In this document: positions 9,179 through 59,877 of the stretch, piece after piece | Layout: each line of letters opens with the position of its first letter | How positions within the stretch are numbered: position 1 is the stretch's first letter | Virus record (IMG/VR): IMGVR_UViG_3300043420_000984 | Coordinates: 1-64,000 of that record | DNA from: a virus | Direction: 5' to 3' (one strand) | Length of the DNA stretch: 64,000 nt | The notes under the pieces: model-generated | Databases searched by the model: none | The model's input: the letters and a program-made list of their open reading frames with translations, nothing else | What the model was told of the DNA's origin: nothing | Made by a program: the position numbers and the translations under genes

Positions 9179-10563
9179 TGGAACAGTTTCAGAATTCATC
9201 AGAGTTTTCTCTACGAAGTGTAAAGATTTCTGCCCTTGGCGACAAGAGTGAAGGATATGAAATCAAGCAAATGATTGGTACTTTCTCATACGTTGAAAGC
9301 ATCACAAGTCCATTTGTCGCAGCTACAATTGTAGTTGTTGATAGTGCTGGTCTACTGAATAGTCTGCCAATTCAGGGTGGAGAAACTGTAAGTATAACAG
9401 TACAAACTTCATCTTCAGAAAAACCACAAGAGTATAAGATGTTGGTTTGGAAAATTGGTAACAGATATGTTAAGAACAACGCTCAGTCATACACGCTTGG
9501 ATTGATATCAGAAGAGGCACTGAATAATGAATACTTTAGATTAGTCAAACCACTTAAGGGAACTGGTGATAAAATAGTCGATGAGATTTTGAAGAAGAAT
9601 TTGAAGACCACAAAAGAATTTTTCTCTGAAGCAACAGAGTTTGAAATGAAATTGATACCAGCAAACAGAAGACCATTCGATCTTATATCTTCTATTGCCG
9701 TTAAAAGTGTTGCAAAAGGTTTATCATCTACTAATAAATCTGGAGCAAAGAATGAGAAGCAAAAGGTCTCTGGTAGTGCTGGGTTTTTCTTCTGGGAAAC
9801 TAAGAGAGGATATAATTTCTTCTCTGTGGATAAACTTTTATCTGATGATGACAAGAACAAACCATGGGGACCTTATATTGAGAAGCCCGCAAACCAAGAA
9901 GATGGAGCAGACAATCGATTTACAATTTCTCAAGCAACCTTTAAGTCTGAAGTAGACGTGATGACATCTTTGAGGAAAGGAAAGTACTCATCTCTGATGG
10001 TATTCTTCAATCATTCCACAGGTCAGTATCATGAATATCATTACAGTCTTGCTGATGCATACAAAGATATGGAACATCTTGGAGCACAGAATACTCCATC
10101 TATTATTGAAACTGCGGATGGAAAAACTTTATCTGATTATCCCACTAGAATTATATCAGTATTACTAGATCATGAAAGTTGGTATAACAAACCAGGGATT
10201 GCTTCATTTGAAGAAGAGGATGGATCTGATAGTCCAAGTCAGTTCTGTGACTTCCACAAACATTTCGCGGGACAATCTATCATGAGATATGAGTTGCTTA
10301 AGCATCAGTTAGCAACTATAATTATTCCAGGTAATTCTGAAATGTGTGCTGGAGATAAGATTACTATCAAGTTAGTAAACAAACTTCCAACTGCGGAGAT
10401 TGATAAGGAACCATACGATCAAGAAAGTAGTGGCACATATCTCATACAAGAGATAACACATACTTATGATAGTACGAAGTCAACTAATGGTAGATTTTTA
10501 AGCACACTTAGATTGATGAGAGATTCATATGGTGATGTGGAGTCTAATCATGGCACTAAATAA
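9178..10563 (+). CDS. Baseplate hub protein (gp27-like)
   Basis: YVESITSP..DSAGL..LPIQGGE, FFFWETKRGYNFFS, IPGNSEMCAGD, SGTYLI..ITH..L.RDS. Confidence 0.75.
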   Translation: MEQFQNSSEFSLRSVKISALGDKSEGYEIKQMIGTFSYVESITSPFVAATIVVVDSAGLLNSLPIQGGETVSITVQTSSSEKPQEYKMLVWKIGNRYVKNNAQSYTLGLISEEALNNEYFRLVKPLKGTGDKIVDEILKKNLKTTKEFFSEATEFEMKLIPANRRPFDLISSIAVKSVAKGLSSTNKSGAKNEKQKVSGSAGFFFWETKRGYNFFSVDKLLSDDDKNKPWGPYIEKPANQEDGADNRFTISQATFKSEVDVMTSLRKGKYSSLMVFFNHSTGQYHEYHYSLADAYKDMEHLGAQNTPSIIETADGKTLSDYPTRIISVLLDHESWYNKPGIASFEEEDGSDSPSQFCDFHKHFAGQSIMRYELLKHQLATIIIPGNSEMCAGDKITIKLVNKLPTAEIDKEPYDQESSGTYLIQEITHTYDSTKSTNGRFLSTLRLMRDSYGDVESNHGTK

Positions 10564-10584
10564 TGTATACGGAGGTAACTAAAT

Positions 10585-14825: not shown

Positions 14826-15143
14826 ATGCTGTCAACGAACTACCGTCTGCGTCTGGAATTTATCTGTGAAAGAATTGTAAAACATGAAGAAGTGAAATTG
14901 GAAGACATGATATGGGCGGAGAAGTTGGCGAAGCATAATAGAACTGCTGCTACCATTCTCAGGCAGGCGAGAAGACGCGCTGCAAGCCCAGAGATGGCAG
15001 AGGATGGGCTAGACGCTTTCATGAACGCCCTGGATCTTGGAGACCCTGATCCCAGCAATCACAGAACAGGGTTCAACAGTCCCGACGACATCGTCGACTG
15101 GTTCTCGCAGGATAAGTCAGACGATTGGCGACAGAGGGATTGA
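14826..15143 (+). CDS. Conserved cyanophage hypothetical protein
   Basis: MLSTNYRLRLEFIC..DWRQRD; CTAAATA late motif at ~14797. Confidence 0.75.
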   Translation: MLSTNYRLRLEFICERIVKHEEVKLEDMIWAEKLAKHNRTAATILRQARRRAASPEMAEDGLDAFMNALDLGDPDPSNHRTGFNSPDDIVDWFSQDKSDDWRQRD

Positions 15144-15194
15144 CAAACCTGACAAACCTCAGTAGAATAAGTCTGTCCGAGTTTCAGGTGAGTA

Positions 15195-15395
15195 ATGGCC
15201 TTAGGAAAACAAGTTGAAGAGAGCCTTCAAGAGGCTGCAGCGTCTCTTAGAAATGCTCTAGCGTTCGCTGCACGTCAGGAAAGACCAATTGTATGCACTC
15301 AGATCGCTAGAATGATTAGCGATATTGAGAGTGTTGGTTCTTTTGATACAATTTTAGATAAATTTGAGGAAATGGCAAATGAAAAAAACTCTTAA
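15195..15395 (+). CDS. Hypothetical protein
   Basis: 66-aa ORF behind a TTGACA..TAGAAT promoter-like pair. Confidence 0.7.
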   Translation: MALGKQVEESLQEAAASLRNALAFAARQERPIVCTQIARMISDIESVGSFDTILDKFEEMANEKNS

Positions 15396-15552
15396 GCGTA
15401 TAGATAGTAAAGGTCACGAAGAGATTTGGGAATGGGATGAGACACCTGAGCTCAAAGCATTCATCAAGTCCCAGACCAGTTCAAAAATTGCCACACCCCC
15501 TTTACGTCCCGTCTGAGGTGTGCTATAATTACTAGGTAATCGAGGCAAGACC

Positions 15553-15681
15553 ATGACTACGCTTCCTAACTGGCAGCATCACAGCAAAAAAGAAAAGAAG
15601 CGTAGTCTGAAACCTCAGGCTTTACGCCAAGCTAAAGCACGTTGTAAAGCGTTAAAAGCAAAACTATTAGAGCGAATATGA
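15553..15681 (+). CDS. Small basic hypothetical protein (not in ORF track)
   Basis: MTTLPNWQHHSKKEKKRSLKPQALRQAK..; GAGG RBS, TATAAT at 15524. Confidence 0.65.
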   Translation: MTTLPNWQHHSKKEKKRSLKPQALRQAKARCKALKAKLLERI

Positions 15682-15708
15682 AGCAATTATAACTTTTAAT
15701 CGCTTCAT

Positions 15709-15797
15709 GGGAGTGTGATGTATGGAGCATCGTGGGTCTTATAAGCCCAAGTGGACCAGATTAGTCCCGTGTTAGGGTTCGATTCCCTACACTCCCA
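15709..15797 (+). tRNA. tRNA-Ile(UAU) with long variable arm
   Basis: gggagtg/cactccc acceptor; tgggt-CTTATAA-gccca; extra ggac..gtcc arm; taggg-TTCGATT-cccta. Confidence 0.8.
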
Positions 15798-15799
15798 TC

Positions 15800-15872
15800 G
15801 CTCCTTTAGCTCTCTGGTGAAAGCACTGTCCTCATAAGACAAGAAAGGTGGGTTCGATCCCCTCAAGGAGCA
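15800..15872 (+). tRNA. tRNA with CAU anticodon (Met or Ile2)
   Basis: gctcctt/aaggagc; tgtc-CTCATAA-gaca; TTCGATC loop. Confidence 0.85.
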
Positions 15873-15875
15873 CCT

Positions 15876-15960
15876 GGGACGGTGGCGGAATTGGTAGACG
15901 CACCAGACTTAAAATCTGTTGAATGTAACATTCGTGAGGGTTCAAGTCCCTCGCGTCCCA
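15876..15960 (+). tRNA. tRNA-Leu(UAA)
   Basis: GGCGGAATTGGTAGACGC D arm; caga-CTTAAAA-tctg; variable arm. Confidence 0.92.
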
Positions 15961-15995
15961 TTGGGTTATAAATAACCTTGAGTTATCTAGAACCC

Positions 15996-16325
15996 ATGCC
16001 TTACAAAGATCCAAAAAAACAGAAAGAGTATCAGCGTGAATGGGCTTCCCAAAACAAACAACTAAAGTCAAAACAGACTGGTTGGTTGAAACGCAAAGCA
16101 ATGGTTGAAGCAGCAAAAGATAAACCTTGTGCTGCTTGTAATCAATCTTATCCTTCTGTTTGTATGGATTTTCACCACACAGATCCTACCGTTAAAGACG
16201 GCAGTGTATCTAAATTAATGAAATCTTCTTCTTATCAAAAATTACAAGAAGAGATTGACAAGTGTGTAGTTCTGTGCTCCAACTGCCACAGATTACTTCA
16301 CGCTGGACTTATTCCTGTTAAATAG
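15996..16325 (+). CDS. Small HNH endonuclease 1
   Basis: CAAC..MDFHH..EEIDKCVVLCSNCHRLLH; TATAAATA at 15967. Confidence 0.88.
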   Translation: MPYKDPKKQKEYQREWASQNKQLKSKQTGWLKRKAMVEAAKDKPCAACNQSYPSVCMDFHHTDPTVKDGSVSKLMKSSSYQKLQEEIDKCVVLCSNCHRLLHAGLIPVK

Positions 16326-16349
16326 TAACAGGATATACTAACAAATGTA

Positions 16350-16631
16350 ATGGCAGTTTTCAGATACACCATAACAAGGAAGCATGTCTTTATTGACAAT
16401 GAACCTGTTTTGATGTATTATATTGAGAACATACCATTTGCATTTGATATTCTCGAAGAAGATCAAAAACACGACAAGTGGATCTTATCTGAAGCAGCAC
16501 TCAATCAAGAATATACTATGGAAGATATCTTCCGTTATTCCGATTATTTGATTGCTGAAGAATGCCACCCAGTATTGTTTGAATTAGACCTAGTAAATCC
16601 TGAAGTATTGCCAGATGAACCAGTTTCTTGA
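16350..16631 (+). CDS. Hypothetical protein
   Basis: 93-aa acidic ORF overlapping cpeT start. Confidence 0.7.
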   Translation: MAVFRYTITRKHVFIDNEPVLMYYIENIPFAFDILEEDQKHDKWILSEAALNQEYTMEDIFRYSDYLIAEECHPVLFELDLVNPEVLPDEPVS

Positions 16632-17154
16632 ACTATTTGAAGGATCTTTTTCCAACAAGCGTCAAGCACAATCTCATCCTACTCGTTATGCTCATATCAG
16701 GGTACAACATCGGAAAATTTCCGATTATAGGTTCTATGGAGAACAATCTTACAATTACTTGCTAAATAGACCATATCGCCAGTTCGTAATTGAGGTGGTA
16801 GATGAGGGTAATGAAGTAGATGGAAACATCTACCGTCTCAAAAATTATGAGATTGAAGACCCTCAAAGGTTTGCCGAATGTAAAAATCTTGAACTCATCA
16901 CGGATGAGATCTTGACATACCGACCAGGGTGTGATAATATTATTAGGCAGACAGGACCCGAAACCTTCGAAGGTAAAAATGATACTTGCGAATGTTGGGT
17001 CATGCGTGGTACAATAAAGACCTACGTTCAAAACGAAGTTGTTCTCACACGAGACACCTATAAAGTTCTGGATCGTGGTCTCCACGCTGAAACCAATCAG
17101 AAAGTTTGGGGTTCTGATTGGGGAGCGTTTGAGTTCAAACGATTGCCTCTCTAG
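16615..17154 (+). CDS. cpeT: CpeT/CpcT-type phycobiliprotein lyase
   Basis: FSNKRQAQSHP..YAHI, YGEQ..RPYRQ, DRG..VWGSDWGAFEF. Confidence 0.9.
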   Translation: MNQFLELFEGSFSNKRQAQSHPTRYAHIRVQHRKISDYRFYGEQSYNYLLNRPYRQFVIEVVDEGNEVDGNIYRLKNYEIEDPQRFAECKNLELITDEILTYRPGCDNIIRQTGPETFEGKNDTCECWVMRGTIKTYVQNEVVLTRDTYKVLDRGLHAETNQKVWGSDWGAFEFKRLPL

Positions 17155-17216
17155 CTCAGTGGTAGAGCACCCGCCTTGTAAGCGGGCGGTCATCAGTTCA
17201 AATCTGATGGGGGGCT
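17145..17216 (+). tRNA. tRNA-Thr(UGU)
   Basis: cccgc-CTTGTAA-gcggg; AGCTCAGTGGTAGAGC; overlaps cpeT stop. Confidence 0.9.
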
Positions 17217-17277
17217 CTTGAAAGGTCTGGAAATGTTCGGATCTTTCATACGGATCGGGATCATCATATCCGATCCA

Positions 17278-17373
17278 CTCATCACTTGCGCTGGAAAGAT
17301 AAACCAGAATGCCGTGATAAGATAGAGGGTAAGCCTCTGTTATATCCTTATGAGGTATATCACGCTTACTCCA
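17278..17373 (+). ncRNA. ~95-nt pseudoknotted structured RNA, copy 1 (family not recognised)
   Basis: Homologous to 18656-18750 with compensatory changes in three helices. Confidence 0.75.
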
Positions 17374-17376
17374 TCT

Positions 17377-17450
17377 GGGGAATTAGCTCAGTTGGTAGTA
17401 GCACTTGCTTTGCAAGCAAGATGTCATCGGTTCGAGTCCGATATTCTCCA
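17377..17450 (+). tRNA. tRNA-Ala(UGC)
   Basis: G3:U70; cttgc-TTTGCAA-gcaag. Confidence 0.93.
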
Positions 17451-17473
17451 TTGAGAGGCGACGGTCTCTCAAA

Positions 17474-17657
17474 GGGTGTGACAGAATAATCCTATGCGGT
17501 CATGCACGGGATAATGTATATTAGGATAGGGGTGGTGCCCGCTGTAATACTGGGAGACCAGAGTTGCAGAATCCAATACCAAGGAATCCGAAAGTTCTAG
17601 GAAACGTTACTATCAGTGCGACCTCCTAGTTGTGAGTATGATAGAATCTCACCACCC
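17474..17657 (+). ncRNA. Probable manA RNA motif
   Basis: ~185 nt closed by gggtg/caccc, several internal hairpins, between tRNAs; size, context and recalled sequence fit the cyanophage manA motif. Confidence 0.6.
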
Positions 17658-17667
17658 ACAAACACAT

Positions 17668-17744
17668 CGCGGGATGGAACAGTCTGGTAGTTCAGCGGTC
17701 TCATAAGCCGCAGGTCGTGGGTTCAAATCCCACTCCCGCCCCCA
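17668..17744 (+). tRNA. Initiator-like tRNA-fMet(CAU), CCA encoded
   Basis: 5' CGCGGG, C1:C72 mismatch, CTCATAA loop. Confidence 0.85.
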
Positions 17745-17747
17745 TTT

Positions 17748-17815
17748 CAAAATTCACTTTTTGATTCTATAAATTCGGGAAAAATTTTTCCGCCAAAAAA
17801 TCGCCAAAAAAGTTG
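17748..17815. repeat. Phased A/T-tract intergenic element, copy 2
   Basis: Similar to 5293-5361. Confidence 0.75.
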
Positions 17816-17824
17816 AGGGCAAAA

Positions 17825-17983
17825 ATGTCACTAATTTCCCAAAAAGACAGAGAAGTAGTAATTGCTGCTCTTGAAAATTACATCATGAAGATCAGATCTG
17901 AAAATCCTCAGGATGATCAGCGTATCTCTGAAATCAATGCTTTGCTCAATTGGGTAAAACTTGAATATCAGAAAAATCTCTAA
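17825..17983 (+). CDS. Small hypothetical protein (52 aa, not in ORF track)
   Basis: MSLISQKDREVVIAALENY..LLNWVKLEY; GAGGG RBS. Confidence 0.65.
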   Translation: MSLISQKDREVVIAALENYIMKIRSENPQDDQRISEINALLNWVKLEYQKNL

Positions 17984-17989
17984 TATTAT

Positions 17990-18062
17990 TGGGGTGTAGC
18001 TCAGCGGTAGTAGCGGGAAGCTGTTAACTTCTAGGTCGCAGGTTCGATCCCTGCCACCCCAG
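17990..18062 (+). tRNA. tRNA-Asn(GUU)
   Basis: tggggtg/cacccca; gaag-CTGTTAA-cttc. Confidence 0.92.
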
Positions 18063-18247
18063 TTGCCAAAACGGCAAAAAACCCTTATAAATAAACACAC
18101 TAAAGGTCGAACATCATGTCTAACTTCAGCAAGCAAATTGAAATCTTTATGGAAAGCGATTGCCGCTATTGGCATATCGCACAGTCCCTCCTGCTTGCTA
18201 ATAAGGATAAACGTATGTAAGACGTAATCTGAAAAAGCAAAAAAGCA

Positions 18248-18282
18248 AGGGGAGGGAAACAAAAAGTTTCTCTCCCTTTTTT
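18248..18282 (+). terminator. Intrinsic terminator
   Basis: gggagggaaac-aaaaa-gtttctctccc followed by T6. Confidence 0.7.
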
Positions 18283-18289
18283 GTTGCCT

Positions 18290-18442
18290 GTGACAGTTTC
18301 CTAAGTGCCCACCCACTACCACCCAGAGATTGAAGCGGTGGTATATTACATAAGTCGGTGGGGGAACGAGACCCCAAACTGCCAAGTCCACTTTCGGAAC
18401 TGGCACAAACCACTTGCCCCGCAACGGGTTTGGTGGTATTCT
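18290..18442 (+). promoter_or_regulatory. Tandem early promoters driving the second tRNA block
   Basis: Two GTGNCA..TGNCAC-type palindromes each ~30 nt before an extended -10 (TGgTATATT 18342, TGgTATTCT 18437). Confidence 0.6.
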
Positions 18443-18448
18443 TAAGAG

Positions 18449-18574
18449 GTGGTTGAGAGAGAAGATTAAAGGTGGTTTTCAACCACCCCGACAACTAGAA
18501 GCGGGGACATAAGGTTGATGTAAAAGTAATTACCATGCTCTCTTAACCACACACACGCACCTTGACAATCTAAA
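18449..18574 (+). promoter_or_regulatory. rrn-like leader: long stem followed by boxA-like GCACCTTGACAA
   Basis: gtggttgagagag(18449-61)/ctctcttaaccac(18538-50); gcaccttgacaatctaaa 18557-74. Confidence 0.5.
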
Positions 18575-18582
18575 CCTTTAAT

Positions 18583-18655
18583 GGGTCTGTTGCATAGCGG
18601 CTAATGCACCTGGCTTTTAACCAGTATATCGTGGGTTCGAGTCCCACCAGACCCA
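18583..18655 (+). tRNA. tRNA-Lys(UUU)
   Basis: gggtctg/cagaccc; ctgg-CTTTTAA-ccag. Confidence 0.9.
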
Positions 18656-18750
18656 TTGCTACTTGCACTTGTCGATTAAACAAGAATGCCGTAGCAAGAC
18701 AGAGGCTATGTCCCTGTTATATCCTTATGAGGTATATCACACATAGTCCA
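18656..18750 (+). ncRNA. ~95-nt pseudoknotted structured RNA, copy 2
   Basis: Fills the tRNA-Lys/tRNA-Tyr spacer; covaries with copy 1. Confidence 0.78.
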
Positions 18751-18753
18751 TAT

Positions 18754-18835
18754 GGAAGGATGTCCGAGTGGTTAATGGAAACGGTCTGTAAAACCGTCGG
18801 CTCTGCCTTCGCAGGTTCGAATCCTGCTCCTCCCA
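18754..18835 (+). tRNA. tRNA-Tyr(GUA)
   Basis: acggt-CTGTAAA-accgt; variable arm. Confidence 0.92.
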
Positions 18836-18889
18836 CTTTATAAGTTTAATAACTTATAAATAATAGTGACACATTTTTGTTTCCCTACC

Positions 18890-19276
18890 ATGTTAAACTG
18901 TAAAACCTGTGGAATAGAACTGACTGAAGATAATACCTTCAGAAGGAGTGGAAGAAAAACAAACTTCCCAGTTGGATATTATAGACATTGTAAAAAATGT
19001 TATAATGCCAGCAGGTTAGGTAGAATGGTAGAAAACAAAAAGAAGCAAGTAGAATTTTTTGGTGGAAAATGTAAATTGTGTGGGTATGATAAATGCCATA
19101 ACGCACTTGAATTCCATCATTTAGACCCTACTATCAAGGAAGAAAGTCCATCTTCCTTGAGGCAAGTCACTGATGAACTTAGATGGAAAAGTGAATTGGA
19201 GAAGTGCATTCTTCTCTGTTCTAATTGTCATCGTGAAGTTCATGCTGGATTACATCCAAATTACTTGGCCCTATAG
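18890..19276 (+). CDS. Small HNH endonuclease 2 with N-terminal Zn finger
   Basis: CKTC..CKKC, GGKCKLCGY..LEFHHLDP..KCILLCSNCHREVH; TATAAATA at 18855. Confidence 0.9.
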   Translation: MLNCKTCGIELTEDNTFRRSGRKTNFPVGYYRHCKKCYNASRLGRMVENKKKQVEFFGGKCKLCGYDKCHNALEFHHLDPTIKEESPSSLRQVTDELRWKSELEKCILLCSNCHREVHAGLHPNYLAL

Positions 19277-19339
19277 TGAAGTGGTCTATCACGCCTACCT
19301 GTCTAGTAGGAATCTGGGATTCGAATTCCCATAGGGTCG
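19267..19339 (+). tRNA. tRNA-Asp(GUC)
   Basis: cctac-CTGTCTA-gtagg; overlaps HNH stop. Confidence 0.88.
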
Positions 19340-19482
19340 TTGGGAGTCAGTATTCTAACTCTCACGCATTCTTCAGAGGTTGCCAGTTTGCAGAAGAATG
19401 TTGTAGTAATAACTGGAATTGGGGAGGGATTTCCGCCCGATGATTTTAAATCATCACTTTGCGGGATACCCCCTCCCATCAA

Positions 19483-19557
19483 GTTCCTATCGACTAGCGG
19501 TTAGGTCACCACTCTTTCAAGGTGGCAGCACGGGTTCGAATCCCGTTAGGAATACCA
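19483..19557 (+). tRNA. tRNA-Glu(UUC), CCA encoded
   Basis: ccact-CTTTCAA-ggtgg. Confidence 0.9.
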
Positions 19558-19558
19558 A

Positions 19559-19632
19559 CGGAATGTAGCGCAGTTTGGTAGCGCATCTGTTTTGGGAACA
19601 GAGGGTCGCAGGTTCGAATCCTGTCATTCCGA
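19559..19632 (+). tRNA. tRNA-Pro(UGG)
   Basis: cggaatg/cattccg; tctgt-TTTGGGA-acaga. Confidence 0.93.
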
Positions 19633-19635
19633 TTT

Positions 19636-19708
19636 GGAAACATAGCTTAGTTGGTAAAGCATTCGACTGATAATCGAAAGACCACTGGTTCGAGTCCAGT
19701 TGTTTCCA
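19636..19708 (+). tRNA. tRNA-Ile(GAU)
   Basis: ttcga-CTGATAA-tcgaa. Confidence 0.92.
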
Positions 19709-19820
19709 CTATGGTGAACCTTAGTCCATCTGAGGAAGAAAGTTTTAGGATCTAGTCAATCCATAAAGACAAGTATTCCGATAAGGAGAATAAAGGTAGG
19801 GGGATGACTACCCTCTTTAT

Positions 19821-19903
19821 GGAAGATTGGCAGAGTGGTTAATGCAGCGGTTTGCTAAACCGTGAGGGTAAAACCTCCGTTGGTTCGAATCCAACATCTT
19901 CCG
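19821..19903 (+). tRNA. tRNA-Ser(GCU)
   Basis: gcggt-TTGCTAA-accgt; gagg/cctc variable arm; G73. Confidence 0.92.
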
Positions 19904-19907
19904 CCTT

Positions 19908-20041
19908 GGAGGTTACGGGTCGGGTAGGCGGTTCAATTCCGTCGTCGAGTGGTCTCGGATGGGGTTCGATTCCCCTTGGAGTATGGCTACTAAAAACGAC
20001 TAGCGCAAGTCGCCCTGTGGGTTCAACTCCCACAACCTCCA
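19908..20041 (+). ncRNA. 134-nt tRNA-like RNA with acceptor stem and three T-loop hairpins
   Basis: ggaggtt/aacctcc-A; ggcgg-TTCAATT-ccgtc, gggg-TTCGATT-cccc, gtggg-TTCAACT-cccac; no canonical D/anticodon arm. Confidence 0.75.
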
Positions 20042-20045
20042 ATTT

Positions 20046-20117
20046 GGCAGTGTAGTTCAGTGGTAGAACAAGAGATTCATACCCTCTATGTCGGTAGTTC
20101 AATTCTACCCACTGCCT
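20046..20117 (+). tRNA. tRNA with CAU anticodon (third copy, atypical)
   Basis: ggcagtg/cactgcc; agaga-TTCATAC-cctct (A31:C39 mismatch). Confidence 0.8.
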
Positions 20118-20118
20118 T

Positions 20119-20189
20119 GTGTCGTTAGCCTAGTGGTAAGGCATCGGTTTGTGGAACCGACTAGATGGGTTCAATTCCCATACGGCACC
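20119..20189 (+). tRNA. tRNA-His(GUG)
   Basis: tcggt-TTGTGGA-accga; C73. Confidence 0.88.
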
Positions 20190-20191
20190 CC

Positions 20192-20263
20192 GCCCTTATA
20201 GCTCAGTGGTAGAGCAACTCACTAGTAATGAGTAGGTCGTTGGTTCAAATCCGACTGAGGGCT
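20192..20263 (+). tRNA. tRNA-Thr(AGU)
   Basis: actca-CTAGTAA-tgagt; G1C2C3 acceptor. Confidence 0.9.
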
Positions 20264-20338
20264 TCTGAGGTCGCCAAGCGGTAAGGCAGCGGGTTTTGGT
20301 CCCGCCATTCGTGGGTTCGAATCCTACTCTCAGAACCA
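20264..20338 (+). tRNA. tRNA-Gln(UUG), CCA encoded
   Basis: gcggg-TTTTGGT-cccgc; GCCAAGCGGTAAGGC D arm. Confidence 0.9.
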
Positions 20339-20410
20339 GTCGGGTTGGTCTAATGGTAAGATGCAGGTCTCCAAAACCTTGCGATGGGGGTTCAAATCCC
20401 TCACCCTTCG
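20339..20410 (+). tRNA. tRNA-Trp(CCA) with mismatched acceptor pairs 2-3
   Basis: aggt-CTCCAAA-acct; G73. Confidence 0.8.
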
Positions 20411-20413
20411 CCT

Positions 20414-20487
20414 ACTCTCTTAGCTCAGCGGACTAGAGCAATCGGCTACGAACCGATGTGTCGCAGGTTCAAATCCTGCAGAGAGTG
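20414..20487 (+). tRNA. tRNA-Arg(ACG)
   Basis: actctct/agagagt; atcgg-CTACGAA-ccgat. Confidence 0.92.
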
Positions 20488-20606
20488 TTTTCGCTAAAAA
20501 TATATGAAAGGTGATTGTACGTGGTCCGAACAGTTCGGATACATTTATATTTGTTGTAAGGAAATAGCCAAAATACTTATTATGAAAGACAAGTACCGAC
20601 CTACTG

Positions 20607-20614
20607 TATAAATA
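20607..20614 (+). promoter_or_regulatory. T4-type late promoter
   Basis: Exact TATAAATA ~40 nt before the giant structural gene. Confidence 0.8.
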
Positions 20615-20655
20615 AATCCTAGGACAAAAGCTTAAACCGTAGGGTCAGTATAATC

Positions 20656-23600
20656 ATGCCATTAACACGTCTGGATAACCTTATCAGCTCAAAAACTGGT
20701 AAGTATCTTTATGTTTCTCCTGATGACTTTAACGCAACTGATGCGTTAGCAAACAGAGGTAATTCACCTATTACACCATTTAAAAGCATCCAGCGTGCAT
20801 TCCTAGAAATCGCAAGATATTCATATCTTCCTGGTTTCGGTAATGACAGATTTGACCAGTTCAGTATTATGCTGATGCCTGGTATTCACTATATTGATAA
20901 CCGTCCTGGTCTGGTAGATACCAGTGGTATTGATGTATTTGGATTTGATCAAGCACTAAATTCTTGGACTGACAACTCGATCCTAGATATTTCTAATCCC
21001 GATAACGTCCTCTACAAGTTCAACAATACTGAGGGTGGTGCTATCATCCCTCGTGGTTCATCGCTTGTTGGTTATGACCTACGTAGAACAACAATCAGAC
21101 CACTCTACGTTCCAGATCCTGCATCAGTAACTGTTCCTCGTTCTGCAATTTTCAACGTAACTGGTGGTTGTTACTTCTGGCAGTTTACCATCAAAGATGG
21201 TCAAACAACTTCAGAATCTCCTCTATATGACAATACACAAGGCACAGGTCTTGTTTATTATGATCCAAATGACTTTACTAAGTTAACTGCTCCTAACTAT
21301 TCTCACCACAAACTGACTGTATTCGAATATGCAGATCAGGAAGAGTTGGGTCTATTCTATAGAAAGATTGCTAAGGCATTCTCTGCATATCAGCCTACAA
21401 TTGATGATCCAGGTGAATTTGATTTCAATATTCAAGAGAATAGAATTGTTGGTCCTCTTTCCGACAGTAGAGTTATTGAAAGTCTGAAATTAACAGATGC
21501 AACAACAAAGCCAAGTGTTCCTGCATCTACTTCTGAAATTGAAGTAACTACAAAAGTAGATCATGGATATTTCCAAGGTCAGTTTGTTGCTATTTCTGGA
21601 ACTGAGATTGATAGTGTCCTGGAAGGTGTCTTCCCTATCAAATCTATCGATCAGAACGATCCTAGAAAATTCACTTATGAAGTTCCAATTGTTGTAAGTG
21701 CAATTGGTACAAACTTAGTATCTGGTCAAACAGTTAGTGTTCCTACTTTAGGACAAAACGCACAAACACTTGCAGAAGTAGATAGCGTTGAATCAGCATC
21801 TCCATACGTCTTTAACTGTTCTATTCGTTCTACTTGGGGTATTTGCGGTATCTGGGCTAATGGTCTTAAGGCGACAGGCTTTAAGTCGATGGTTATTGCT
21901 CAGTATACTGGTGTTTCTCTACAGAAAGACGATAGAGCGTTCATTCGTTATGATGAGTATTCTAACACTTGGAACCAAGCATCTCTAACTGATGCTTTTG
22001 CTACTGTTCCTTATCACACTAAGGGTGATAGCTACTGGAAAGATGATTGGAGAAACTTCCACGTTCGCGCTTCGGAAGATGCATTCATTCAGAACGTTTC
22101 GATCTTCGCTGTTGGTTTCGCTGATCACTTCCTAATGGAGAGTGGTGGTGACATGTCGATCACCAACTCTAACTCCAACTTTGGTAACACCTCTCTACAT
22201 GCTATTGGTTTCAAAGGATTTGCCTTCAACCAAGACAAGGGTGGTTATATTACCGACATTATTCCACCACAGAAAATTGCTGAAGGATCTGCAAATACAA
22301 AACGAGTACAATATTATACTATTGATATCCAAGGAACCATCAAGGATAATAACAACTACACAAAATTGTTCTTAGGAAGTGATAGTGTAATCACTCCCAT
22401 CGACAGACCATCTGTGACTATTCAGGGTTATAGACTTGGATCTAAAACTGATGAAAAATTATTTGTTACTTTAGACCCAGCTTCTCCTGGTGGACCAGAA
22501 GAATTTAACGCAACCTTAGAACCAACAGGATTTGTAAAGTATATTGCCAGTGCCAGCATTTTAAATCCATCTGGAATTGCAATTAACAATATCTATGCTG
22601 ATGCTGCTAATTTAATCCAGAATAATCGCAGAATGATCCAGGAGGAGGTATTTGGATATATCTTTGAGAAGTATCCAAGACTTCAGAATATCCCATATGT
22701 AAATCCTGGTAGAGATCCAGATGCAAATCGTTTCTATGATGCAAGAGATTTAATTATTGCAAATCGCCAATATATTATTACTCAAGCTCAAGTTGAAACT
22801 CTAGCTGCGTATCCAACTACGAGTATTACTTTGTTTGATATTGGTGAAATAGTTGATGCTATTGCAGAAGATTTGAGAGATGGTGGTAACTTTAATACTA
22901 TTGAAAAAGTAAAAGAATATTTTAGTGGATCTGGTAATCTATCTTCTTTCCTTGGTTTTGAGGCGGAAGCTATATTTGCATTCAATAGAACTCGTGATCT
23001 ATGCAAACTTGCAATTGCAAACCTTCTTCCAAATAAAGCTTATCTATATGATCCAGATCCAAACAGTGAGATTGCTGGGTATGTACTTAGTAGAAATGGA
23101 ATTACTACTGCTGGATATACTGGATCGGAAGCGGAGGAACTGTCTTTAACAACAAATGGAGTTACTGTTGATGTAGCTAACAAAGTAGATCCAGCTGGAA
23201 GATTTAAAGATGCTAGTAACTTAATTTCAGCTAATAAAGATTTTATTGTTGATAATGCATTGGCGGAGATTGGTGTTTATCATCCTGACTTTTTCTTCCC
23301 AAATGATCCGCAAACCACAGCAGATTCTAGATTTGCTGATGCATATCGTTTAATTCGTCGTAATAGAGAAGAAATTCAAAATGCTGCTATTGCTGCTATT
23401 CTAACAAACTATCCAACATTCGTATTTCCAAATGGATCTACAGATAAGTGTCGCAGAGATATTGGTTATCTGATTGATTCTATTGCTTTAGATATTTTTC
23501 TTGGTGGAAATGAATATACAATCAAGTTCACCAGAAAGTATTTTGATGCACTTGGCAATCCAATTTCTGATGGTTTATCTGGTGAAGAAGCTCAAAGCAT

Positions 23601-58828: not shown

Positions 58829-59877
58829 CTATCCGCAAACTCGCCAGTATCGCTGAAATCACTTACATCAAACCTATTGAAGGTGCTGATGCTATTGAAT
58901 GTGCCATCGTGAATGGTGGTTGGCCAGTTGTGGTCAAGAAAGGTGAATATCAAGTTGGTGATGTTGCCATCTATCTTGAGATTGATAGTTGGGTGCCACA
59001 TGAACTTGCTCCTTTCCTGAGCAAAGGTCAAGAACCCCGTGAATATAATGGTGTGAAGGGTGAGCGTCTTCGTACTGTGAAACTTCGTGGGCAAATCAGT
59101 CAGGGACTTCTGCTTCCCATCAACCTGGATTCGCCTCTTGCTGATGCTGTTTCGTTGGGTGATGATGTAACAGAGATGCTCAAAATCCAGAAGTGGGAAC
59201 CACCTATCCCTGCTCAACTTGCTGGTACGATGAAGGGTAACTTCCCTCACTTCATCCCTAAAACTGACCAGGAACGTTGCCAGAACCTTCGTAAGGACAT
59301 CTTTGAGATCCACAAAGATGAAATCTATGAAGTTACCACTAAACTTGATGGTAGCAGTATGACTGTGTATGTCAAAGATGGTGAGATTGGTGTCTGTTCT
59401 CGTAATATTGACCTGAAGGAAACTGAAGGCAATAGTTTCTGGAAAGCAGCACGGGAACAGAATATCGTTGATGCTCTGCTTGCTTTGTGTTCCAAGCATG
59501 GTGAAGAGTATGCTATTCAGGGTGAGTTGATTGGTGAAGGTATTCAGGGCAATCCTGAGAAACTCAAAGGTCAGCGTTTCTATCTGTTTGACATCTTCAG
59601 CATCACTTATGGATACTATCTGAAACCAGAAGAACGTTACACTGTTCTTGAAATGCTGGGTGATATGGGTGCCGATATTGAGCATGTTCCCATTATTGAT
59701 CAAGATGTTCGTGTTGCTCAAGCATATGATACCATTGATGAACTTCTGGAGTTTGCTGAAGGTCCATCGCTGAACCCTCAAACTAAGCGTGAGGGACTTG
59801 TATTCAAGTCCTGGGAGAGTGATTTCACTTTCAAGGCGATTGCTAACTCTTATCTTCTGAAGCACAAAGACCGATGA
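58825..59877 (+). CDS. RNA ligase, DRB0094 family
   Basis: N-terminal RKLASI..GADAIE domain, LRGQISQGL, motif I KLDGSS, QGELIG, FDI, REGLVFK, FKAI. Confidence 0.92.
   Translation: MTIRKLASIAEITYIKPIEGADAIECAIVNGGWPVVVKKGEYQVGDVAIYLEIDSWVPHELAPFLSKGQEPREYNGVKGERLRTVKLRGQISQGLLLPINLDSPLADAVSLGDDVTEMLKIQKWEPPIPAQLAGTMKGNFPHFIPKTDQERCQNLRKDIFEIHKDEIYEVTTKLDGSSMTVYVKDGEIGVCSRNIDLKETEGNSFWKAAREQNIVDALLALCSKHGEEYAIQGELIGEGIQGNPEKLKGQRFYLFDIFSITYGYYLKPEERYTVLEMLGDMGADIEHVPIIDQDVRVAQAYDTIDELLEFAEGPSLNPQTKREGLVFKSWESDFTFKAIANSYLLKHKDR

Follow-up and report, generated by a model that had tools for sequence, protein, structure and literature searches.

Conserved structured RNAs in the spacers of a cyanophage tRNA array, probably released by tRNA processing

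The long spacers of a tRNA gene array in a T4-like cyanomyovirus hold, as our analysis supports, real and conserved structured non-tRNA RNAs, not junk. Two of these, a hairpin RNA that we call R1 and an RNA lodged between tRNA-Asp and tRNA-Glu, are uncatalogued and extend the known repertoire of small RNAs that lie within tRNA clusters of phages. We consider it probable (at roughly 60%) that the spacers are RNA modules co-transcribed with the tRNAs and set free by tRNA processing. The window that we analysed comprises 64,000 nucleotides (positions 1 to 64,000 of IMG/VR record IMGVR_UViG_3300043420_000984) and is a piece of a T4-like cyanomyovirus genome, kin to S-PM2.

ARAGORN places 20 tRNA genes on the plus strand between positions 15708 and 20488, the number originally predicted, and the Rfam tRNA model concurs. 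Several open reading frames are interspersed with the tRNAs: two HNH-like frames with weak Pfam HNH matches (15978-16325 and 18866-19276), a frame at 16350-16631, a CpeT frame at 16615-17154 (Pfam CpeT, 130 bits) and one of 56 amino acids at 17813-17983. A conserved stretch at 18116-18220 (plus strand) is a micro-gene of 34 amino acids and not an RNA element; a frame of 32-35 amino acids is retained in 22 of 24 distinct homologous stretches, and a late-promoter-like box, TATAAATA, lies upstream of it. Downstream, at 18247-18279 on the same strand, a hairpin with a T run resembles an intrinsic terminator and divides the array, as we read it, into two transcription units. A conserved promoter-like and leader region (18290-18581, plus strand) then precedes tRNA-Lys and is made up of promoter-like modules with a hairpin after each one.

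Six spacers had been named as folded elements placed flush with their flanking tRNAs. All six are present, and all are flush when boundaries are taken from ARAGORN and the Rfam tRNA model: 17218-17375 (tRNA-Thr ends at 17217, tRNA-Ala starts at 17376), 17452-17667 (tRNA-Met starts at 17668), 18657-18753 (tRNA-Lys/tRNA-Tyr), 19341-19482 (tRNA-Asp/tRNA-Glu), 19710-19820 (tRNA-Ile/tRNA-Ser) and 19906-20045 (tRNA-Ser/tRNA-Met). For every element the gap to the tRNA at either end is 0-5 nt. Compared with dinucleotide shuffles, folding energies give z-scores of -1.6 for 17226-17375, -3.2 for 18657-18753, -3.4 for 19341-19482 and -2.3 for 19906-20045. The fifth spacer, 19710-19820, folds no better than chance (z = +0.23), and its relatives, two contigs only, are at 91% identity too alike for a structure test. 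The prediction of folded elements thus stands for five of the six spacers and lacks structural support at 19710-19820, while conserved structure in relatives, in the form of both conservation and covariation, is borne out for four of the six elements (the two R1 copies, a manA RNA and the Asp-Glu RNA). It is nonetheless still true that there are at least six structured modules, because the first spacer has, in its upstream part, two covarying hairpins in addition. The first (17219-17248, plus strand) has a 13-bp stem directly 3' of tRNA-Thr and compensatory changes; blast finds 24 matching stretches, and in the related contigs inspected the hairpin starts 1 nt past the tRNA 3' end. The second (17252-17276, plus strand) combines a 7-bp covarying stem with a conserved 11-nt loop.

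R1 is a hairpin of about 55 nt, consisting of a basal helix, a small asymmetric internal loop and a 9-bp upper helix closed by a 7-nt loop. The record's 91 kb contain two copies, each within the tRNA array and on the plus strand: 17321-17375, ending 0-1 nt upstream of tRNA-Ala, and 18698-18752, ending 1 nt upstream of tRNA-Tyr. Both match the covariance model R1 with both helices retained, at 86.8 and 75.2 bits respectively, and both had been included in the model's seed alignment. Other contigs, and cultured phages too, yield independent hits that score 48-90 bits. A 27-nt core is found as an exact match in more than 119 IMG/VR contigs and is present in five cultured cyanophages. Cultured carriers of R1 include the Synechococcus phage S-CREM1 and also S-SZBM1. 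Across 185,579 prokaryote genomes, on the other hand, the core was not found save in two contigs of less than 1 kb, and no Rfam family matches R1 even at E = 5. In the basal helix, two-sided changes affect 5-6 pairs, pairing holds in 98-99% of cells, and none of 500 shuffles reached its covariation score. The upper helix is 99.7% paired in the register with the 7-nt loop, where two pairs covary, and 96.3% paired in an alternative register. Adjacency to tRNAs, a test of which had been proposed, is borne out: a same-strand tRNA lies within 400 nt at 79 of 80 distinct loci, a tRNA starts 0-8 nt downstream at 41, and one ends no more than 45 nt upstream at 57. Each copy in the window is preceded by a two-level hairpin on the plus strand. 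The one ahead of the first copy (17281-17318; predicted fold, repeat family D6) has compensatory variants in four relatives (L006, L015, L019 and L066), and in most relatives its slot is taken by a promoter or a short hairpin; the one ahead of the second (18656-18697) starts at the 3' end of tRNA-Lys.

The Asp-Glu RNA, our second uncatalogued conserved family, spans 142 nt (19341-19482, plus strand). Its consensus fold comprises hairpin A (19341-19364), a near-invariant core (19366-19420) and an acceptor-like hairpin C (19421-19477), which is trailed by an A and then by a 4-nt tail. Relatives were found in S-CREM1 and in 16 IMG/VR contigs, and occupy the tRNA-Asp/tRNA-Glu gap in all contigs but one, where the ARAGORN call for the upstream tRNA is ambiguous. 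Hairpin A has been exchanged among relatives, with compensatory changes.

The second spacer is filled by a full-length manA RNA (17452-17662, plus strand), 1 nt downstream of tRNA-Ala and 5 nt upstream of tRNA-Met. The Rfam search that had been suggested as a check recovers it at 100.9 bits against a gathering threshold of 55.2 (RF01745, model positions 1-192, E = 6e-26). The family, reported from T4-like cyanophages, has been described in 5' UTRs of protein genes as a riboswitch candidate (Weinberg et al. 2010, PMC2864571), and its Rfam class is cis-regulatory. The copy in the window, in contrast, is not in the 5' UTR of a protein gene, the next open reading frame lying past tRNA-Met; here, as in S-CREM1 and one IMG/VR record, manA lies flush with a tRNA on either side, and there is no gene for it to control. 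This placement argues for a free processed RNA and against the riboswitch label, and a free RNA fits the report that manA RNAs assemble into RNA-only cages (2026 preprint).

How might such modules become RNAs in their own right? They start at a tRNA 3' end and stop 0-5 nt short of the next tRNA. Since module ends are tRNA ends, excision by RNase P together with tRNA 3' maturation is naturally expected: the host RNase P cut at the 5' end of the downstream tRNA, combined with 3'-end maturation of the upstream one, would yield discrete small RNAs. Once freed, manA would work by self-assembly, and a protein or another RNA may bind the near-invariant upper stem-loop of R1. Release along these lines can soundly be inferred from the geometry of the array and from two small RNAs of phage T4, rnaC (species 1, 139 nt) and rnaD (species 2, 119 nt).

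Like the modules described here, these are non-tRNA RNAs encoded on the tRNA strand, within the cluster and flush with a tRNA: rnaD lies 1 nt past tRNA-Arg, and rnaC 6 nt past rnaD. Both RNAs accumulate, and to our knowledge no function has been established for either. A homing endonuclease gene, segB, lies within the T4 tRNA cluster much as HNH-like genes lie within the cyanophage array. The likeness does not extend to sequence, where blast returns T-arm words only and model R1 draws a blank in the T4 region. The cyanophage array also differs in having more families, spread among the tRNAs, whereas the T4 RNAs are gathered at one end, and the R1 family, unlike rnaC and rnaD, is often linked to promoters. 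Other structured RNAs near phage tRNA islands, GOLLD and ROOL of phages and prophages, form RNA-only cages (PMC12286853); they are far larger (600-800 nt) than the RNAs in the window, where Rfam has no match to them. A closer parallel is S-CREM1, which shares with the window the tRNA order Lys-Tyr-Asp-spacer RNA-Glu and an R1 copy adjoining tRNA-Ala, and which carries manA between tRNA-Leu and tRNA-Asn rather than between tRNA-Ala and tRNA-Met. In the available part of the S-CREM1 paper the non-coding RNA cluster is annotated with Rfam matches only (wcaG, manA, glnA and abiF), and flush placement, R1 and the Asp-Glu RNA are not mentioned there (PMC9964418).

The promoter linkage of R1 deserves attention, as it feeds the strongest alternative. 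Imagine that the modules work exclusively in cis, belong to the architecture of the tRNA operon and are degraded after processing with no function of their own; they might be promoter-proximal leaders, protective hairpins at 5' or 3' ends, processing guides, or insulators that let each tRNA fold independently. A sigma-70-type promoter (TTGACA-N17-TAnnnT) indeed lies a few bases upstream of R1 at 27 of the 80 loci, and at 32 of the 80 R1 is preceded by a short hairpin and an A/T-rich box that is shared with the promoter class. R1 is found ahead of at least nine tRNA identities, of another RNA element or, in a few loci, of a ribosome-binding site and gene instead of a tRNA, and in this respect acts like a portable leader. 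Its position directly after a promoter in relatives fits a cis-acting 5' leader as well as it fits a released RNA, and the constant 1-nt offset of the first trailer hairpin and the repeated promoter-hairpin modules of 18290-18581 can be read in the same way. Four observations argue against a role in cis as a satisfactory explanation. A generic stabilising or insulating hairpin needs no exact 27-nt core maintained in so many contigs; both R1 copies in the window are mid-operon and have no promoter; manA is a 210-nt multi-helix RNA for which self-assembly has been shown (2026 preprint); and in the T4 record both rnaC and rnaD bear the annotation of a small, stable RNA. We therefore regard an exclusively cis-acting role as possible but unlikely, and favour release of the modules as free RNAs.

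The sixth spacer calls for a different set of considerations. It contains a tRNA-like RNA (19908-20041, plus strand) in which a 7-bp acceptor stem, a discriminator A and a canonical T arm with its T-loop can be read from sequence and fold, and in which about 100 nt of hairpins, two of them T-arm-like, stand in place of the D and anticodon arms. With no cloverleaf D or anticodon arm, it is not called as a tRNA by ARAGORN at default settings or by the Rfam tRNA model; relaxed ARAGORN thresholds give two overlapping, mismatch-rich pseudo-tRNA folds. A tmRNA identity was considered and rejected (13-15 bits against a gathering threshold of 47, covering the 3' T-arm part only), and ARAGORN at default settings makes no tmRNA call. 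The prediction that this element is folded holds up in its perfect acceptor stem and T arm and finds no echo in relatives: no homologue turned up in cultured phages, in IMG/VR (by pattern search) or in 53 related records. The element aligns to a serine tRNA carrying two inserted T-arm-like hairpins, and its slot is taken in S-PM2 by tRNA-Ser(GGA) and in the relative L135 by another sequence, of 84 nt; in L143 the slot is empty. It is, then, a lineage-specific, tRNA-derived mosaic, and it may be a tRNA in decay. T4 rnaC likewise has paired termini and ends in a canonical T arm.

Could the spacers as a whole be functionless debris of a hyper-variable array, that is, decayed tRNA genes or leftovers of recombination and homing endonucleases? 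The history of the sixth slot with its poor pseudo-tRNA calls, the missing fold signal at 19710-19820 and the two HNH-like genes would all suit such an account, but it fails for R1, the Asp-Glu RNA, the trailer hairpins and manA, which combine compensatory changes with near-invariant cores and span many contigs with differing flanks, and we judge it improbable overall.

We give similarly little credence to the idea that the released RNAs imitate parts of tRNAs, as decoys or mimics, and so titrate enzymes that handle tRNAs or host nucleases that target them, or that they act on translation. The whole case is one of resemblance. The R1 loop, CU-UAU-GA with variants CU-GAU-GA, shares six of its seven positions with the anticodon loops of two tRNAs in the window, tRNA-Ile(UAU) and tRNA-Ile(GAU); an A follows the terminal helix of R1 as well as that of the Asp-Glu RNA, which recalls an acceptor stem with its discriminator; and 19908-20041 retains an acceptor stem and T arm. 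Yet the anticodon likeness is lost in some R1 variants, whose loop has 5 nt, and the R1 stem has 9 bp rather than 5. The abiF RNA (RF03085) has Rfam matches in S-CREM1 and in relatives, where it sits flush upstream of tRNAs, but is absent from the window, with no Rfam match in 15000-21500 at E = 5. The RNA ligase noted elsewhere in the window is real (Rnl2-type, PF09414, 100 bits, 59326-59838), but no defence or counter-defence gene is tied to the array. An action on translation or against tRNA-targeting defences, as the original prediction had ventured, is thus not where any finding of this analysis points. In its boldest form, the idea would have the phage imitate parts of tRNAs on purpose with three RNAs (R1, the Asp-Glu RNA and the acceptor/T-arm RNA), mass-produce these by tRNA processing and use them in the infected cell as a sponge for the tRNA-cleaving nucleases of host defence or for enzymes that modify tRNAs. 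This is a long shot; if true, it would provide the first function for the 50-year-old class of T4 rnaC and rnaD.

Extra small RNAs in phage tRNA clusters have been recognised since T4, and we know of no explanation for them. The set in marine and estuarine cyanophages proves far richer and is strongly conserved, which offers both comparative and experimental handles. For R1 these include the exact core, two covarying helices and cultured phages with a culturable host. If the released RNAs bind host factors, they would represent a new layer of host take-over in some of the ocean's most abundant viruses.

In the window the tRNA array comprises 20 tRNA genes on the plus strand between 15708 and 20488 (ARAGORN; the Rfam tRNA model agrees), and the IMG/VR record from which it comes is a virus fragment of 91 kb. 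Megablast of 15700-20500 matches Synechococcus myoviruses, S-PM2 best, at 93% in pieces. The order of tRNAs in S-PM2 is identical but its spacers are much shorter, so that the spacer contents described below are additions relative to that phage. Alongside the tRNAs, the array holds a CpeT gene (16615-17154; 130 bits), two HNH-like ORFs (15978-16325 and 18866-19276) and several small ORFs. The two HNH-like ORFs have a C-terminal CSNCH motif in common and occupy a position like that of segB among the tRNA genes of T4. The CpeT gene and the second HNH-like ORF each overlap the next tRNA gene by about 10 nt. A strong terminator-like hairpin at 18247-18279 likely splits the array into two transcription units. 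Far downstream, a 357-aa open frame includes an RNA ligase domain of the Rnl2 type at 59326-59838 (100 bits to PF09414).

The original prediction had placed at least six folded non-coding elements in these spacers, at 17278, 17474, 18656, 19341, 19711 and 19908. Those at 17278 and 18656 have a 95-nt repeat in common (79% identity), the 3' half of which is a hairpin of ~55 nt, R1, present at 17321-17375 and 18698-18752. Across an alignment of 58 distinct copies, the basal helix of R1 is 99% paired and five pairs have changed on both sides; the observed covariation score was reached by none of 500 shuffles, and sliding the partners against each other lowers pairing to 30-50%. The upper helix, a 9-bp stem with a 7-nt loop, is 99.7% paired and includes two covarying pairs. 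Divergent copies keep this form, which settles the register; a fold with a 4-nt loop and a bulge was dropped, four of its pairs being broken in those copies.

A 27-nt stretch of R1 recurs exactly in more than 119 IMG/VR contigs (a lower bound). Searched with a covariance model built from the 58-copy alignment, the full 91-kb record yields no R1 beyond the two known copies. Outside the record the model picks up copies that have diverged further, both in other contigs and in three cultured phages (S-SZBM1, S-RIM8 and S-SRM01), and blast adds S-CREM1 and S-RIM32. In S-RIM8 (KX349286.1), R1 lies at about 19436-19489 in an unannotated gap between tRNA-Thr and tRNA-Ala where the locus-tag series skips 027; ARAGORN calls an odd tRNA with a two-base anticodon ~80 nt upstream of it. 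The R1 core was not found in one genome per species from 185,579 prokaryote species, except in two contigs shorter than 1 kb (JAURIR010000201.1 and JALRAI010000177.1) from MAGs of unrelated phyla, one a Chitinophagales and the other a Flavobacteriaceae MAG; both contigs are most likely mis-binned cyanophage fragments. R1 has no Rfam match in the window or in five related loci.

The proposed association with tRNAs was borne out when contexts were counted at 80 distinct R1 loci with full flanks: a same-strand tRNA lies within 400 nt at 79 of them. At 41/80 loci a tRNA starts 0-8 nt downstream of R1 and at 23/80 it does so 40-140 nt downstream, and at 57/80 a tRNA ends no more than 45 nt upstream. 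The tRNAs that start 0-8 nt past R1 have at least nine different identities. Given these counts and the variety of downstream tRNAs, R1 is a module of tRNA arrays that is not tied to one tRNA. The gaps of 40-140 nt are mostly taken up by another conserved RNA, ~85 nt long, for which we found no Rfam match and which is absent from the window. This RNA has a GUAGGA/UCCUAC-type closing stem, abuts tRNA-Asn or tRNA-Leu and occurs in many related contigs (L041, L012, L019 and L067 among them); in L041, for example, it takes up the ~90 nt that follow R1.

What might R1 do? Its upper stem-loop is near-invariant and sits on a freely covarying base, which suggests that R1 has a specific binding partner. 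A serious rival is that R1 is a purely cis-acting leader. Covariation is also seen in the hairpin ahead of each R1 copy in the window; most relatives have in its place either a TTGACA-N17-TAnnnT promoter or a short hairpin with an A/T-rich box. That R1 is often placed after a promoter favours the leader reading. Kissing between the R1 loop and that of the second hairpin behind tRNA-Thr (17252-17276) was considered and rejected: the loops are complementary over 5-6 nt, yet that hairpin is found at only ~7 of 119 R1 loci. R1 was rejected as coding sequence: the copies differ in frame, the frames extend into tRNAs, and those of relatives begin only about 8 nt past a promoter. Across 903 tRNA contexts, CCAUC does not hold as a general rule for the junction ahead of a tRNA. 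The R1 loop also resembles tRNA-Ile anticodon loops, a lead only, and a weaker one given the variants whose loop has 5 nt.

An Rfam search, as had been suggested, identified the element at 17474 as a full-length manA RNA, a known family (17452-17662; 100.9 bits). In all three phage cases examined (the window, S-CREM1 and one IMG/VR record) manA sits flush between tRNAs, which favours a free RNA over a 5'-UTR switch. This reading agrees with a 2026 preprint in which manA RNAs assemble into RNA-only cages, and in which tRNAs are not mentioned. GOLLD and ROOL also form cages, and their genes too lie near tRNA islands of phages (PMC12286853).

The 142-nt spacer between tRNA-Asp and tRNA-Glu, which contains the element at 19341, folds well relative to shuffled sequence (z = -3.4). 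The corresponding spacer of S-CREM1 is homologous, and homologues occur in 16 IMG/VR contigs, flanked by tRNA-Asp and tRNA-Glu in all but one, where ARAGORN calls the upstream tRNA ambiguously. Homologues differ in the first hairpin, which is swapped for other hairpins with compensatory changes, and hardly at all in the 55-nt middle; in the last hairpin, a G/C-rich acceptor-like stem is retained and the insert it encloses varies. Thus the prediction of structured spacer elements stands for both R1 spacers, manA and the Asp-Glu RNA, all of them conserved.

It does not extend to 19711. That spacer folds no better than its shuffles (z = +0.23) and its only relatives are two copies, 91% identical, located after tRNA-Ile; a structured RNA is not supported here. 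At 19908-20041 we find a perfect 7-bp acceptor stem, a discriminator A and a canonical T arm enclosing ~100 nt of hairpins, two with T-loop-like sequences. Serine tRNAs can be aligned to the element if two insertions are allowed, and S-PM2 has tRNA-Ser(GGA) in the same slot. In the T4 small stable RNA rnaC, too, the termini pair and the last element is a T arm. ARAGORN returns only poor overlapping pseudo-tRNAs, and these only at relaxed thresholds, where its permuted tmRNA calls are spurious. Blast of cultured phages, an IMG/VR pattern search across the two inner T-arm loops, and searches of related records at the DNA level (5 at first, later 53) recovered T-arm words only, so that no relative was found in the places searched.

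Other parts of the array are also structured or conserved. Two hairpins make up the first 60 nt past tRNA-Thr (17219-17276); related contigs (24 matching stretches) carry both right behind the 3' ends of tRNAs, with compensatory changes. Between 18064 and 18581, a gap of 518 nt contains a 34-aa gene, a terminator and a conserved promoter-like region and no RNA gene; 18064-18290, tried as an RNA element, is ruled out by the first two of these. The micro-gene (18116-18220) lies behind the late-promoter-like box TATAAATA and ahead of the strong terminator, its DCRYWHI motif is invariant, and of 24 distinct related stretches 22 retain an ORF 32-35 aa long. For this region the S-PM2 annotation gives a hypothetical gene that runs on the opposite strand and overlaps a tRNA. 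From 18290 to 18581 the sequence consists of repeated promoter-like modules with a small hairpin behind each, and it is conserved in contigs L067 and L076 as well as in S-PM2. Its last TTGACA box, 12 nt ahead of tRNA-Lys, has no usable -10. In related cyanophage arrays, Rfam hits to abiF RNA (RF03085; 45-51 bits) lie 4-5 nt upstream of tRNAs (L023 11169-11205, L019 2367-2403, L067 6337-6373 and S-CREM1 10531-10567), and wcaG RNA lies 27-47 nt ahead of a tRNA in L023 and S-CREM1. The Rfam search found no abiF RNA in the window.

R1 and the Asp-Glu RNA are not in Rfam 15, and a literal literature search for the R1 core sequence gave no match; both may be among the 8,495 unnamed candidates of the IMG/VR structured-RNA catalogue (PMC10690425). 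As to function, nothing in our analysis shows the suggested action on translation or against tRNA-targeting defences, and the acceptor-like ends of the elements are a lead only. The elements are conserved structured RNAs whose ends abut tRNAs and which lie on the same strand and in the same transcription units as these. From established tRNA processing, RNase P would cut each downstream tRNA at its 5' end and, together with 3' maturation of the upstream tRNA, would release the elements. T4 provides a precedent: rnaD starts 1 nt past tRNA-Arg and rnaC 6 nt past rnaD, in a cluster that also houses segB. Phage tRNA clusters are already known to carry embedded small RNAs.
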